From Oscillospiraceae bacterium (GTDB lineage Bacteria; Bacillota; Clostridia; Oscillospirales; Oscillospiraceae): DNA of 64,000 nucleotides. Positions 56,609-63,495 of this stretch are shown in pieces. The position numbers and the translations under genes were made by a program. Every line of letters starts with the position of its first letter. Position 1 is the first letter of the stretch. Where the stretch lies: positions 18,585 through 82,584 of the forward strand of contig WRAO01000010.1 of the NCBI GenBank assembly GCA_009780175.1, read 5' to 3'. The notes under the pieces were generated by a model. The model ran no database searches. It had not been told where the DNA came from and saw only the letters and a program-made list of their open reading frames with translations.

Positions 56609-57025
56609 CTATGCGTCTTCACCCATAATCTCTAGCAATCTCTCCATCCGCTCCAGCGGAAACGGCGGGTTACCGAGCGGTTTCATGGCCAGCGACATCA
56701 ACTTCAAGGAATTGTCGTCCGCCGCGCTGCGGTTCGAACTGAGATGCCCGCAAATCCTACAGCGGTGGATAATCGCCCACTCGCCGCCTTTTCTCACCCA
56801 AATGCCGATCGCCTCCATCACGCCGCCGCAGTCCGCCTCGCGGCCTCCCGGCTCATTGTCTAAATGCTGACTCGAAAGGCAGTAGGGGCAATGGTTTCTA
56901 TGGTTACTCGCCGCACCGTCCGGCACAACCAGACGATCGCACACCTTGCAAGTAAAGCTGTCGTTGCAAGTATGATTGCGATAATAGCCCTTCATGTATT
57001 TTTTTCGTTTATTTTCTCTGTTCAA
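56609..57025 (-). CDS. RNHCP domain-containing protein (Cys-rich, zinc-ribbon-like)
   Basis: 138 aa with a TTG start (AGGAGG 8 nt upstream). The literal HRNHCPYCLSSQHLD motif plus CGG.M and HRCRICG define the RNHCP family. Confidence 0.8.
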   Translation of the reverse strand: MNRENKRKKYMKGYYRNHTCNDSFTCKVCDRLVVPDGAASNHRNHCPYCLSSQHLDNEPGGREADCGGVMEAIGIWVRKGGEWAIIHRCRICGHLSSNRSAADDNSLKLMSLAMKPLGNPPFPLERMERLLEIMGEDA

Positions 57026-57516
57026 GTGTTTTTCCTCCTGAAAGTTGTTGTTTGCCTCAACTCTCCGGGAGACTCCCGCTACTTAGCGCAGACAAACCTC
57101 CCGGCTTGCTACACTCTCTGCTCTAAGACTGTTCATAAAATAACGCTCCTTTTCATCTTAATCTACCCTGTTTCTTTTTCAACTGTCTCTTGAACCGCTT
57201 GACTCTTGCCGCCAAACATTCGGCTGCTTTTCAATGATTGCACTCCTTACGCCATTTGGGCAAACAAAAAAGCGCAGTTACCCACTGCGCTACAAAACAA
57301 ACAAAAGAACGTGTTGCGTGAACACTTCTTCGGATTGTCACATAAGGCATTTGGGTACACAAAACAAGCAGGCAAAATCCCCGCTGCCGCGACGCAAATA
57401 GTCACCTTATTGACGAACCCTCACCAGTCATTCCACACTTTCTCTTATGATCTAGTTTTCAAGATAACACTAAACCCTAGCATTGTCAACCCCACGACAA
57501 ATGTATACATTTCCCC

Positions 57517-57545
57517 TTGACAAAAAACTACATTTGTAGTATATT
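57517..57545 (+). promoter_or_regulatory. blaI-operon promoter with an embedded BlaI/MecI-type operator palindrome
   Basis: TTGACA (57517-57522), a 17-nt spacer, then TATATT (57540-57545). The spacer holds ACTACAttTGTAGT (57527-57540), matching the TACA/TGTA dyad bound by BlaI/MecI/CopY-family repressors. Confidence 0.7.
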
Positions 57546-57578
57546 TTATATTGATAGTTTCACCGGGGAGGCCTTTCC

Positions 57579-57950
57579 ATGGAACATAAAATTTCTGATG
57601 CCGAACTAGAAGTCATGCGGATTTTGTGGCGCGAGCAGCGTCCGCTCAAAGTTTCAGAGTTTCGAGATGAACTTGAGCAAAGAAAGGGTTGGAATAAATC
57701 CACCACCGGCACGCTCGTTACACGCCTGCGCGACAAAGCGCTGATTGAGCCCACCGAACGCTATGGCGTAGCGCGCTACGTTCCCCTCATCACAGAGGAC
57801 GAGTATGTCCTCACAGAAGAAAAAGCTTTGCTCGAAAAGTTCGGAAGCGCGAAAAAACTCGCAGTCGCTATGATTCGCAACGGACACCTGAGTAGTTCCG
57901 ACATCGAAGAATTGCGCGCATACTTCCAGATGGGTGGTGACAACGCATGA
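57579..57950 (+). CDS. blaI: BlaI/MecI/CopY-family transcriptional repressor
   Basis: 123 aa. ISDAELEVMRILW......V.E........GWNKSTTGTLVTRL..K is a winged-helix Penicillinase_R pattern. Confidence 0.88.
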   Translation: MEHKISDAELEVMRILWREQRPLKVSEFRDELEQRKGWNKSTTGTLVTRLRDKALIEPTERYGVARYVPLITEDEYVLTEEKALLEKFGSAKKLAVAMIRNGHLSSSDIEELRAYFQMGGDNA

Positions 57951-59881
57951 GCGATCTTTTCAGAACCATCCTCATCATGTCCTTATCCGGCAGTGCGCTT
58001 GCGCTTGTGCTTTTTGCCATAAAGCCGCTCCTGCGGAATCGCTTGCCGAAGTCTGCGCAATACTACTTATGGCTCGTCGTAATCGTCGCGTTTCTCCTGC
58101 CGATCTCCCAGTTTGCCATTTTGTCGGACCAACAGGCAATACCGATTCCAACCGTTCCGACCATCAACGATACGGTAACGCGGTTTGTGATTACCCAAGA
58201 GGAGGCGTACGAACGGTTTCAGACCATCCCGCCTGTCGCAAGCGGTAGCGCCTCGGCCTATGGATGGGAGCAACAAGCTCTAGCAAGCTTGCTCACTTGG
58301 GCAACAACCTATTTGGTCATGCTCTATCCTCTCGGCGTTCTCCTATTTGGCCTCTATTATGCGGTGAATTATACGATCTTTATGAAGCTCTATCGTCGCC
58401 GCAATCGCGCGGCAAGCGAGGAGGCTTATACCATCCTCAAAGCGCTCTGTAAAGGCCCTATTCCGCACCTGTATCAGAACCCATTGGCGTCCACACCAAT
58501 GCTTTTTGGGGTGTTTAATCCTACCATTATCCTACCCGATCAGGCGTATACAACAGACCAAATCCGCTCCATTTTGTCGCATGAACTCGTCCATTTGCGC
58601 CGTAAAGATACCTTTATCAAGTGGCTTACCCTGCTTGTTACCACATTGCACTGGTTCAACCCGATCGTCTGGTTTGTCGTCCGCCGCGAGATTGAGCGCA
58701 CCTGCGAACTGGCTTGCGACGAGGCCGTGATCCGCAATCTGGGCATGGACGAAAAGCAGAGTTATGGCGATACGCTCCTCTTTGTTTCTGCGGAATCGAA
58801 ACTGCCGAGGGTCGTCCTCGCTGCCACAATGTGCGAAGAACAAAAGAATCTCAAGGAGCGGCTCGGCTCCATTATGAAAAGCAAACAACATACTCGTATC
58901 GCGTTAATTTTATCAGCGGTCTTGATCTTCTTCGCCGCCGGCTTTGTTGTGGCGCTCGGGGTAGGAAACGGCAATGGCGGGCACGCTACCCAAACCTTCG
59001 CGGCCGAAGCCCCGACACGGCCATCTTTATCGGATGCCTTTGGCGCCGGACGGCCTCAGCCCGCAGGTCCGGAAGCAGAACTCCCCGCTTACATCACCAT
59101 CCGCGGGGCGCAATTCAGCACGGCGCTCACCACGCTTGATCTGAATCGCATGGCCTTGACGAATGAAGAACTCATCCCGCTCCGCTATATGACGAATTTG
59201 ACGGCGCTTTGGATTAGCAACAGCCAAACGGCTTTGTCTGATACCTCCCTTACCGACCTAAGCCCCTTGGCCGGGCTTACAAATCTGACGGACCTCCACC
59301 TCGGCGGGAACCAGATTAGCGATCTTACTCCACTGGCCGGCCTGACGAACTTAACCGCGCTCAGCCTCGATATGAACCAAATCAGCGACCTCTCTCCGTT
59401 GGCAGGCCTCACAAACTTAACGGGCCTCGGCCTTGGTATGAACCAAATCAGTGACATCACACCCCTCGCTAGTCTCACAAACTTGACGCGACTTCACCTC
59501 GACGGCAATCAAATGAGCGATCTCGCGCCGCTGGCTGGCCTCGTGAATTTGACCGTTCTTAGCCTCAGCGGGAACCGAATCAACGACCTCTCTCCGCTGG
59601 CTGGCCTCACAGACCTGACCTACCTTTGGGCAGGCAGCAACCCGCTCAGCGACTTGGGTCCGCTGGCTGGTCTTACGAATTTAATGAGCCTCAGCCTGTA
59701 TAGCAACCAAATTAGCGATCTTACTCCGCTGGCCGGGCTTACCAATTTGAGCTTCCTCAACTTGAACGAAAATCAGATCCGTGACATCACCCCACTGGCT
59801 GGCCTTACAAATCTGGACGGTGTCGCCCTCGACTGGAACCAGATCTCCGACTGGTCTACCTTGGCGCGCCTCTTCCCATAA
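57947..59881 (+). CDS. BlaR1/MecR1-like M56 membrane metalloprotease with a C-terminal leucine-rich-repeat domain instead of a penicillin-binding sensor
   Basis: 644 aa, with an ATGA overlap with blaI. A typical BlaR1 N-terminus and HELVHLRRKD zinc motif with a downstream E..CDE. After a TM at about aa 320-340 come about ten 22-aa repeats LTNLT.L.L..NQISD..PLAGL (nt ~59130-59878). Confidence 0.85.
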   Translation: MSDLFRTILIMSLSGSALALVLFAIKPLLRNRLPKSAQYYLWLVVIVAFLLPISQFAILSDQQAIPIPTVPTINDTVTRFVITQEEAYERFQTIPPVASGSASAYGWEQQALASLLTWATTYLVMLYPLGVLLFGLYYAVNYTIFMKLYRRRNRAASEEAYTILKALCKGPIPHLYQNPLASTPMLFGVFNPTIILPDQAYTTDQIRSILSHELVHLRRKDTFIKWLTLLVTTLHWFNPIVWFVVRREIERTCELACDEAVIRNLGMDEKQSYGDTLLFVSAESKLPRVVLAATMCEEQKNLKERLGSIMKSKQHTRIALILSAVLIFFAAGFVVALGVGNGNGGHATQTFAAEAPTRPSLSDAFGAGRPQPAGPEAELPAYITIRGAQFSTALTTLDLNRMALTNEELIPLRYMTNLTALWISNSQTALSDTSLTDLSPLAGLTNLTDLHLGGNQISDLTPLAGLTNLTALSLDMNQISDLSPLAGLTNLTGLGLGMNQISDITPLASLTNLTRLHLDGNQMSDLAPLAGLVNLTVLSLSGNRINDLSPLAGLTDLTYLWAGSNPLSDLGPLAGLTNLMSLSLYSNQISDLTPLAGLTNLSFLNLNENQIRDITPLAGLTNLDGVALDWNQISDWSTLARLFP

Positions 59882-59924
59882 CACCCGCTCAAAAATAACA
59901 CGATCCCCCGCAAGGAGTCCACAC

Positions 59925-60947
59925 ATGCACAGGCGAACAAATCCGGTCAAAGCTTTCATCCTTGTCTTATTAATGACAACCCTCGGCTTCGGCTTAGTAG
60001 CCGGCGGGTTATCGCTCCACCAGCAGAGTACACGCACTTCGATCGCGCAGATCTCACGCCCAATCGCGCAGCCTTCTCCGCAGATCGCGCATGCGCTGTA
60101 TACGGAACACGGGATACATGGAGCACACCTGCAAAGCGAACTTATGCCGGCCCCAATTTACACCAACTTCACCCCTCCGACCGATGCGCTGACCGAGTTA
60201 CTGCAACGCCACGGCTACGGTTTATCTGTATACTTTCAGAATCTGGAGACGGGCTTCGTGTTCGCGTATAACGCCGATCATATTCACTTCTCGGCCAGCC
60301 TCCCGAAGGCCGTCTATGCGTTCTACCTCTTCCATCTGGCCGAGCAGGGCCTGCTCGACCTAGACAGCCGCCAGACTTACACCTGGGCGGATTTCAGCGA
60401 CAATTCCGGCATCATCCACCAACGATACCCGGTCGGCACAAGCTTTTCCACGAGAGAGCTCATCCGCTTAAACGTGAGCGAAAGCGATGATGTGGCAACC
60501 TTGATCCTCCGCAGAGTCCACGGGTTGGATGGGTACCGCGCGTTTATTTCGGATATCGGCGGCAATCCCGCTCATGTCGGGGCCGCCGGTTCGCCCTGGA
60601 TCGGGACGGAGATCATGAATTCTCACATCAGCGCCAATGAGGCCGGGCTTTTTATGCAGCGCATTTTTGAATATTTGGAGTCCGGCGGCGCCTATAGCGC
60701 AGAGTTTCAGGCCGCTTTGCTCGACAATCAATTCCCCTTCATCGTCTCTGACTACCCTGTCGCAAGCAAAAGCGGGTGGACGGCGCCCTTTGCTTGGCAC
60801 GATATGGCCATTGTCTATGCTCCTTCGCCCTTTATCCTCGTCATCCTCTCTCAGCGCACCGGCTGGACTGAGGCGGATTACCGAGATTTCGCCGAAATCT
60901 CGATGGCTTTTCAGGCGTTCAATGATACGTGGTTTGTAAATCCATAA
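59925..60947 (+). CDS. Membrane-anchored class A beta-lactamase-like serine hydrolase
   Basis: ORF 59781..60947. The preferred start is ATG 59925 (AAGGAG 7 nt upstream). It has an N-terminal TM (AFILVLLMTTLGFGLVAGG), an SxxK motif (SASLPK), an SxS/SDN-position motif (SESDD) and a K(S/T)G motif (SKSGWT). Confidence 0.75.
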   Translation: MHRRTNPVKAFILVLLMTTLGFGLVAGGLSLHQQSTRTSIAQISRPIAQPSPQIAHALYTEHGIHGAHLQSELMPAPIYTNFTPPTDALTELLQRHGYGLSVYFQNLETGFVFAYNADHIHFSASLPKAVYAFYLFHLAEQGLLDLDSRQTYTWADFSDNSGIIHQRYPVGTSFSTRELIRLNVSESDDVATLILRRVHGLDGYRAFISDIGGNPAHVGAAGSPWIGTEIMNSHISANEAGLFMQRIFEYLESGGAYSAEFQAALLDNQFPFIVSDYPVASKSGWTAPFAWHDMAIVYAPSPFILVILSQRTGWTEADYRDFAEISMAFQAFNDTWFVNP

Positions 60948-60953
60948 CCATGA

Positions 60954-60995
60954 CCGGAACCCCCTGCCAAGCGTTGCCAAGGCAGGGGGTTCCGG
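60954..60995 (+). terminator. Hairpin terminator after the bla-like gene
   Basis: CCGGAACCCCCTGCC-aagcgttgccaa-GGCAGGGGGTTCCGG followed by TTTGT. Confidence 0.75.
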
Positions 60996-61185: not shown

Positions 61186-61224
61186 AAAAGCCCCGGAACT
61201 CCACTATGAGTTCCGGGGCTTTTT
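61186..61224. terminator. Terminator of uvrB (bidirectional hairpin)
   Basis: AAAAGCCCCGGAACT-ccactatg-AGTTCCGGGGCTTTT. Confidence 0.8.
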
Positions 61225-63248: not shown

Positions 63249-63495
63249 CAGCCTCCTTTTCCAAAGGAGGTGCCTATCGGTATTCCTTCCGCCGAACCAA
63301 TCGGTCCGCGGCTTTGCCTTGCCCTCCCCAGGCGTCAGTTATGGTAGGCGTAGCCTGACGGAAGATTTGTTAGGGGATGCGGTGCTAGAGGGGAGGAATC
63401 CTCAGTCCGCTTCGCTGACATAACTGACGCCTGGGGAGCGAAGTGATTGGCTCGGAGGAAGGAATGCCCGTGGCAGTTCTTTTGGGAAAGGAGCC
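63249..63495. repeat. Inverted pair of the dispersed intergenic repeat (copies R and Q)
   Basis: Copy R (+, ~63249-63370) and copy Q (-, 63391-63495) both carry CTCCTTT(T)CCAAA(A)GGAG, CATTCCTTCC.CCGA.CCAATC and CCCCAGGCGTCAGTTATG blocks. Q is roughly 88% identical by eye to copy P at 29777-29885. Confidence 0.8.

Follow-up and report, generated by a model that had tools for sequence, protein, structure and literature searches.

The closest described relatives of the system reported here are the BlaR1/BlaI and MecR1/MecI pairs of Staphylococcus aureus and Bacillus licheniformis (8EXP-8EXT; PMC9834060), in which a membrane zinc protease of the M56 family carries a penicillin-binding sensor and acts with a winged-helix repressor. 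A survey of about 15,000 M56 proteins distinguishes 254 architectures, finds a transpeptidase domain in ~6% of the proteins and BlaI nearby for 96%, and concludes that M56/BlaI systems sense diverse stimuli (Kurtz et al., 2026; PMC13492132); leucine-rich repeats (LRRs) are not among the architectures with at least 100 entries that it lists. The CenIR pair of Clostridioides difficile controls envelope proteins including a peptidoglycan hydrolase (PMC13492132), and sensor-less pairs are represented by PvmSR of Pseudomonas aeruginosa and by BlaIR of Mycobacterium tuberculosis and M. abscessus (bioRxiv 10.64898/2026.08.03.742534). The idea that a BlaR-like sensor may respond to something other than a beta-lactam has already been published (PMC13492132), and a literature search for M56 or BlaR1 proteins with LRRs found no relevant paper. 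The locus analysed here lies in a 64,000-nt stretch of Oscillospiraceae bacterium contig WRAO01000010.1 (assembly GCA_009780175.1, positions 18,585 to 82,584 of the forward strand), referred to below as the window. Three genes on its plus strand, arranged as one compact unit, encode a BlaI-type repressor, an M56 protease that ends in an LRR domain and a membrane-anchored hydrolase of the class A beta-lactamase fold. The unit is probably a self-repressed operon of the BlaI/BlaR (M56) regulated-proteolysis family with the LRR domain as its likely input. Particular to it are the LRR ectodomain, the putative beta-lactamase-fold output encoded in the operon itself and an insert unique to that output.

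A first-pass annotation of the window, made from the letters alone, had described a consensus promoter with a BlaI-type dyad in its spacer, followed by blaI and then by an overlapping M56 protease gene with a HELVH motif, and all three readings stand. The sigma-70-type promoter (57517-57545, plus strand) consists of TTGACA at 57517-57522, a 17-nt spacer and TATATT at 57540-57545, and it matches the consensus at 11 of 12 positions. The dyad ACTACAttTGTAGT occupies the spacer and touches the -10 box; read directly as the operator ACTACATTTGTAGT, it spans 57527-57540 and has the core TACAttTGTA. A TACA/TGTA core (TACAnnTGTA) is that of BlaI/MecI/CopY operators (PMC7253601), and a dyad of this type overlapping its own promoter, as is typical of the family, is found here at the sequence level. 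A genome-wide pattern count on the 1,878,405-bp assembly returns a single occurrence of the exact 14-mer ACTACANNTGTAGT and 13 copies of the 10-mer core TACANNTGTA. No second operator exists elsewhere in the genome, the nearest candidate being a one-mismatch site within a coding region on another contig (C1). Because the operator is unique in the genome, the operon is the only target detectable there. The arrangement is also kept in relatives: upstream of a 61%-identical orthologue (L010/L011), TTGACA is followed by 17 nt containing ACTACATGCGTAGT and then by TATATT, which is the same layout, and a 47%-identical relative has two CTACAnnTGTA-type sites upstream. A separate feature of this region is a perfect 12-bp palindrome, AATGTATACATT (57499-57510), which lies between two divergent -35 boxes; its half-sites are ordered TGTA-TACA, the reverse of the BlaI operator order.

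The blaI gene (57579-57950, plus strand) encodes a winged-helix repressor of 123 aa and has a GGGGAGG ribosome-binding site 7 nt 5' of its start. The protein belongs to the BlaI/MecI family by its match to PF03965 (1.6e-22; 80.5 bits, cut-off 22.6), which covers profile positions 1-113 of 115, and it aligns end to end with the MecI and BlaI structures 1SD6 and 1SD4 (residues 3-114 with 1SD6). Assignment as a CopY/TcrY copper repressor (TIGR02698) is rejected, as the protein has no cysteine and hence no Cys-X-Cys motif and, at 63.4 bits, falls short of the model's cut-off of 121.95. The cleavage site of S. aureus BlaI, L98-V-L-N/F102 (the slash marks the scissile bond), aligns with L94-A-V-A/M98 of the window protein, and the partner repressors of relatives have A/M or A/L at the same position.

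The M56-LRR gene (57947-59881, plus strand, 644 aa) overlaps blaI by 4 nt (ATGA). Its residues 1-340 (57947-58966) form a BlaR1-type M56 membrane zinc protease module that matches PF05569 over residues 8-307 (185.7 bits, 1.4e-54), with HELVH at residues 212-216 and four membrane helices predicted from hydropathy (7-25, 41-59, about 118-140 and 318-336). The residues H212, E213, H216, D221, E254, D258, Y273 and R305 are invariant across 15 aligned M56-LRR proteins and align with H201, E202, H205, D210, E242, D246, Y261 and R294 of BlaR1 (8EXP), for which catalytic and structural roles have been described (PMC9834060). Together, H212ExxH216, E254xxxD258 and the four helices constitute the M56 module of BlaR1 and MecR1. 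The autocleavage site of BlaR1, L280-S-H-S/F284, aligns with L291-A-A-T/M295 in the window protein, where M295 is invariant. Because the two sites read L-A-A-T/M in the protease and L-A-V-A/M in BlaI, a P4 leucine and a hydrophobic P1' residue are kept in both; as in the staphylococcal system, the protease's own loop and the repressor share these features, which supports a putative working pair of protease and substrate. Lysine and arginine residues number 4 in loop 26-40 and 6 in loop 141-165, and loop 60-117, the linker and the LRR domain are net acidic. The predicted topology matches that of BlaR1 (PMC9834060), with the zinc site in the cytoplasm and the C-terminal domain outside.

No Pfam or NCBIfam match to PF00905 or to a class-D-like penicillin-binding domain is present in the M56-LRR protein, and the NCBIfam model blaR1_generic covers residues 16-336 only, where it stops with 123 bits against a cut-off of 400, which agrees with the earlier remark that the penicillin-binding sensor is absent. 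BlaR1 and MecR1 in the strict sense carry a C-terminal class-D-like PF00905 sensor with an acylatable SxxK. As the window protein fails on this sensor domain, the system is not a strict BlaR1; it belongs to the BlaIR family when this is defined broadly, as an M56 membrane protein with any C-terminal region and a BlaI homologue within five genes (Kurtz et al., 2026), the two genes here overlapping by the 4 nt given above. Since the sensor is without a penicillin-binding domain, direct acylation of the M56-LRR protein by a beta-lactam is excluded.

After the last membrane helix, a disordered linker rich in Gly, Pro and Ala (residues about 337-380; 58955-59086, plus strand; net acidic), predicted to be extracellular and with a predicted local distance difference test (pLDDT) score below 50 over residues 336-377, leads to the LRR domain (residues 381-644; 59087-59881, plus strand), which is likewise predicted to lie outside the cell. 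Domain annotation and structure modelling of this region, both of which had been proposed as checks, identify it clearly: LRR_4 matches at 8.9e-44 and the solenoid is modelled at pLDDT 86-98. The domain opens with a beta-hairpin and helix cap from residue ~381 and continues through two degenerate repeats into nine canonical ones of 22 residues each (446-643), and the protein ends right after the last of them. The first-pass annotation was correct in placing internalin-type 22-residue repeats after the last membrane helix, and its count of about ten becomes nine clear and two degenerate repeats. Internalin A and the Chlorobium Roco LRR (both with E about 1e-22) are, with InlF, the top structural matches of the model. 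When the same repeat is compared between orthologues, its variable surface positions show 69% identity, against 17% between different repeats, which excludes homogenised filler repeats. In the coding DNA, positions 59308-59611 show a 66-nt tandem periodicity (4.6 copies, 69% matches), and relatives vary in repeat number and inserted regions and range from 631 to 961 aa; gain and loss of repeats by recombination fits the periodicity and the varying repeat number.

The third gene (59925-60947, plus strand, 340 aa) encodes a membrane-anchored serine hydrolase related to class A beta-lactamases (PF13354 at 1e-27). Its start is most likely ATG 59925, which has an AAGGAG ribosome-binding site (59912-59917) 7 nt upstream, in preference to GTG 59781, at which the longest open reading frame begins and overlaps the M56-LRR gene; the earlier description of a class-A-like, membrane-anchored protein with SLPK and KSG motifs holds once its start at 59781 is moved to 59925. 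The protein has a basic N terminus, one N-terminal membrane helix, a disordered spacer of ~55 residues and a class-A-type fold that carries the class A motifs S125-L-P-K128, S187-D-D (SDN with Asn replaced by Asp) and K282-S-G. This fold is similar to class A enzymes, to PBP-A (2J7V) and to BlaB (2WUQ) with TM-scores of 0.6-0.8 (up to ~0.8 on the target); for the structures 2J7V and 2J8Y the scores are 0.62 (query) and 0.78 (target). The NCBIfam model bla_class_A is matched at 50.6 bits against a cut-off of 200, and the NCBI family name for the hydrolase's relatives is 'class A beta-lactamase-related serine hydrolase'. The omega loop of the family is shorter by ~10 residues, and where the staphylococcal-type 6WGR sequence has Glu166 the aligned residue of the family is Arg. 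Among the relatives examined, only the window hydrolase and a 73%-identical orthologue (P0122) have an 8-residue insert, AAGSPWIG, together with Glu at the Glu166 column, and neither has an equivalent of Asn170. The enzyme may be a DD-peptidase of the PBP-A kind or else a weak beta-lactamase, and in both cases would act at the cell wall. Between the M56-LRR stop and the hydrolase start lie 43 nt in which no promoter-like or terminator-like site is found. A 13-bp GC-rich hairpin with a 12-nt loop and a weak T tract (60956-60993, plus strand), 8 nt after the hydrolase stop, is a candidate terminator of the operon that was read directly from the sequence, its 12-nt loop having kept it off the list of the terminator scan, and a strong bidirectional terminator with a 16-bp stem and T runs on both sides (61186-61223) is common to the operon and the convergent uvrB gene.

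Relatives of the M56-LRR protein were collected as the best 120 matches in 5.8 billion proteins and clustered at 90% identity. Among these matches, at least 20 other clusters join PF05569 with LRR families; at 50% identity the count is at least ~10 clusters, which is a lower bound only, as giant LRR proteins swamped the exhaustive search of representatives. The survey of such fusions and their neighbours that had been recommended earlier gives a clear pairing, with blaI directly upstream in all eight other complete M56-LRR loci. The same neighbourhoods, re-scanned with profiles, contain no PF13354 gene within 4-5 kb (0 of 8). The hydrolase is found only beside the closest orthologue, on a 3.2-kb contig where a 73%-identical M56-LRR gene, cut by the contig end, is followed after 45 nt by the 73%-identical hydrolase gene and then by a convergent spoIIR in place of uvrB. 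Linkage of the hydrolase is real yet limited to this sub-lineage. A role as a general partner of M56-LRR proteins is rejected, the gene being absent from 8 of the 9 other loci, and the hydrolase looks like a lineage-specific output rather than a general co-sensor. Its own relatives include proteins of 58-59% identity encoded by the last gene of conserved units with a response regulator, a histidine kinase and an uncharacterised ~300-aa protein (L037:1961-6026 and L039:1785-6050; in L039 an Amidase_3 gene follows), and at a further locus (L035) another relative overlaps a gene for an asparagine-synthase-type amidotransferase. The family looks like a commonly regulated cell-wall enzyme.

M56-LRR fusions are rare, and their history includes more than one gain or loss. 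Among 151 genomes belonging to the same family, a full-length M56-LRR protein is found in one other genome only (G142); most of these genomes have M56 genes, of many lengths. Eighty M56 loci taken from species representatives include none with an LRR and 73 with blaI upstream. In a tree of the M56 module, the window protein and one relative (P0002) fall outside the main LRR clade and group with proteins that have no LRR. The LRR label requires 2-4 gains or losses on this tree, and a single origin of the fusion is rejected. The operon is accessory, because three other species of the genus lack it and keep uvrB with other genes beside it. Base composition was considered as a sign of foreign origin and rejected, the operon having 52-58% GC and the genome 54.6%.

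Several arrangements near related genes are recorded as observations in their own right. The same genome encodes a second blaI/M56 pair on contig C18 (L002:1094-3165), whose M56 protein has a C-terminal region of ~250 residues with no Pfam domain; no ACTACA-type dyad is seen upstream of this pair, which adjoins a convergent gene for a TPR protein. Free-standing LRR genes lie beside two of the eight other blaI/M56-LRR loci (L007:3667-4425, 252 aa; L040:7379-8194, 271 aa) and could be outputs, decoys or chance neighbours, LRR genes being abundant in these genomes. On four Clostridia contigs (L118, L102, L116 and L112), two or three blaI/M56 pairs or tandem M56 genes lie side by side, which suggests local duplication and diversification of sensors.

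Taken as a self-repressed switch, the operon would work as follows. In the resting state, BlaI dimers bound to the single spacer operator would keep expression low. The four-helix M56 protein would have its zinc site in the cytoplasm and would display its LRR solenoid outside on a flexible tether, where BlaR1 has its penicillin-binding domain. An extracellular cue other than direct beta-lactam acylation would activate the protease, most likely through a ligand bound at the LRR surface; the LRR domain is the obvious candidate for the input because it stands at the sensor position and outside the cell. The active protease would then cut BlaI in its dimerisation helix, at the predicted A97/M98 bond that corresponds to N101/F102 of S. 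aureus BlaI, and the resulting derepression would raise the levels of blaI, sensor and hydrolase from what would be a common transcript. The hydrolase, presumably tethered to the membrane and facing outwards, would be the only non-regulatory output detectable in the genome. That the proteolytic switch is retained, as the first-pass annotation proposed, agrees with the invariant catalytic residues, the constant position of blaI and the conserved operator. Its suggestion of a protein or glycan input bound by the LRRs in place of a beta-lactam holds as far as direct beta-lactam acylation is excluded, and the protein or glycan nature of the ligand finds no support. It had also offered two roles for the hydrolase, output or co-sensor. 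Of these, a regulated output is the better supported, because the gene is missing from those 8 of 9 other loci, its relatives end two-component-system operons and the operator is unique in the genome; a general co-sensor is not favoured.

Several points weigh against this reading. The full-length AlphaFold model, built on a shallow alignment, is reliable for the LRR part only; confidence is low in its membrane part, where most residues have a pLDDT under 60. The Asn/Phe scissile residues of BlaI are not retained in the alignment, which has A/M. The extracellular loop 60-117, whose BlaR1 counterpart plugs the sensor site (PMC9834060), shows the same degree of conservation in close M56 relatives whose C-terminal domains are different, and since the same loop sequence occurs in these non-LRR relatives, a function of the loop as an LRR-specific docking element is rejected. 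The LRR domain is tethered by a disordered linker of ~45 residues, and some relatives have 300-400 extra residues; because the linker is long and disordered, and longer still in relatives, rigid allosteric coupling of the BlaR1 kind is doubtful. With a long tether and a loop that is not specific, coupling would have to be of a generic kind; helix 4, oligomerisation and protection from shedding are possible routes. The 69% identity of the repeat surface is not above the overall 73% and is no proof of selection for binding. Finally, the loci that lack the hydrolase have no linked output gene.

The alternative that best withstands these data, although unlikely, is that the LRR domain is not the input at all: damage to the wall, including damage by beta-lactams, would be sensed by the membrane module, by loop 60-117 or by a cytoplasmic peptidoglycan fragment acting on BlaI, and the LRR would merely localise or tether the protein at the wall or S-layer. 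The length and disorder of the tether, the conservation of loop 60-117 whatever the C-terminal domain and the free exchange of C-terminal domains among close M56 relatives are all consistent with it, as are the nature of the output, a cell-wall enzyme of the beta-lactamase fold, and the existence of BlaR proteins free of a sensor domain in Mycobacterium and Pseudomonas (bioRxiv 10.64898/2026.08.03.742534). However, orthologues retain the LRR with its repeat-specific residues, the domain occurs in the 20 or more further M56 clusters, and its repeated gain exactly at the sensor position is unexpected for a passive module.

It is rather improbable that the hydrolase is an independent neighbour that happens to abut a two-gene switch, with the true regulon located elsewhere or with autoregulation only. 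Most M56-LRR loci are indeed bicistronic, and the region next to uvrB varies among species of the genus, but the 43-nt gap has neither a promoter-like nor a terminator-like site, the orthologous contig has a similarly tight junction (45 nt) in spite of its different flanks, and the genome offers no second operator. A split beta-lactam receptor, in which the hydrolase becomes acylated by a beta-lactam or occupied by a muropeptide and the LRR domain reads this state by protein contact and activates the protease, is very doubtful: both domains face outwards on flexible tethers, LRRs typically bind proteins, the M56-LRR and hydrolase genes stay together in two different neighbourhoods and the AAGSPWIG insert with its omega-loop-region Glu is common to only the two M56-LRR-linked hydrolases, but the missing hydrolase gene at most other loci implies a separate input for the LRR class, and relatives of the hydrolase are terminal genes of other sensory operons.

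A bolder form of the preferred reading, that of a self-repressed operon with an LRR input, is a long shot at best. It would make the LRR domain a bacterial pattern receptor that converts recognition of a defined molecule at the cell surface into transcription, by intramembrane-coupled proteolysis of BlaI, and the hydrolase, with its unique insert and added Glu, a PBP-A-type peptidase in transition to an inducible beta-lactamase. Conceivable ligands are a muropeptide set free by wall damage, a protein of the host or of a neighbour in the gut, or the acylated co-encoded hydrolase. If true, eukaryotic LRR receptors would have a counterpart in prokaryotes.

The operon is of interest beyond this genome. 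BlaR-like proteases are a large family of transmembrane sensors whose inputs have been determined in only a minority of cases, and among alternative sensor domains the LRR ectodomain belongs to the few whose binding surface is well understood, which would make ligand fishing and chimeric sensors practical. The putative output gene in the operon would be a ready reporter. A beta-lactamase-fold enzyme under a BlaI/BlaR switch that is unable to bind beta-lactams directly also bears on how inducible beta-lactamase operons were assembled. Practical limits are set by the host, an uncultured metagenome-assembled genome, and by the prior publication of the general principle.

Two further features of the flanking DNA deserve mention. 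A divergent promoter on the minus strand (TTGACA 57489-57484, 17 nt, TATCTT 57466-57461) drives ~190 nt without a convincing open reading frame, ending at a clean terminator (57291-57262) upstream of a gene with an RNHCP domain (56609-57025). RNA from 57262-57489 on the minus strand is predicted to fold at -62.9 kcal/mol (z = -2.2). Its possible identities include a leader, a riboswitch-like element and a small RNA; an Rfam search of the whole window and of the leader region returns only two tRNAs, both elsewhere in the window. An element of ~50 nt between uvrB and radC (63250-63300) recurs in at least 14 other places in the genome (80-98% identity), and its 23-nt core has more than 15 copies in a congeneric genome (G151). 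It is a dispersed repeat family resembling repetitive extragenic palindromic (REP) elements.

Comparison with known systems places each part of the operon separately. The 22-residue repeats (LxxLxLxxNxIxDIxPLxxLxx) are those of class 1 internalins of Listeria (InlA and InlH) and of the Chlorobium Roco LRR, with 40-50% identity over the repeats. Unlike a class 1 internalin, the window protein has no internalin cap, Ig-like inter-repeat domain or wall anchor, ends 7 residues after the last repeat and scores 196 bits against the NCBIfam internalin_A cut-off of 1600, outside that class; the likeness is one of fold and repeat type only. The hydrolase shares the class A fold and the SxxK, SD(N/D) and K(T/S)G motifs with class A beta-lactamases and with PBP-A of Thermosynechococcus elongatus (2J7V), a DD-peptidase that lacks the omega-loop Glu (PMC11189452). 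The short omega loop of PBP-A, without the catalytic Glu, resembles that of the hydrolase family, whereas the window enzyme is membrane-tethered and, like one orthologue, has the 8-residue insert and Glu at the Glu166 position. PvmSR and the mycobacterial BlaIR pairs also consist of an M56 protein and a BlaI-type repressor that do not control, or are not triggered via, a penicillin-binding sensor, but they have no ectodomain where the window protein has a large folded one. CenIR is likewise a BlaIR-family pair of Clostridia without a beta-lactam-binding domain; CenR differs in having no recognisable C-terminal domain, while the window operon has the LRR and a putative output gene of its own. 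From BlaR1/BlaI and MecR1/MecI the operon differs in the sensor, which is class-D-like there and a tethered LRR solenoid here, in the scissile bonds, which are N/F and S/F there and predicted to be A/M and T/M here, and in gene order, a divergon there and codirectional blaI, blaR and hydrolase genes here. It shares with them the repressor family, the TACA/TGTA core and the presumably autoregulated organisation of the operon, together with the same M56 gluzincin module, its catalytic residues and four-helix topology, and a linked gene of the beta-lactamase fold.

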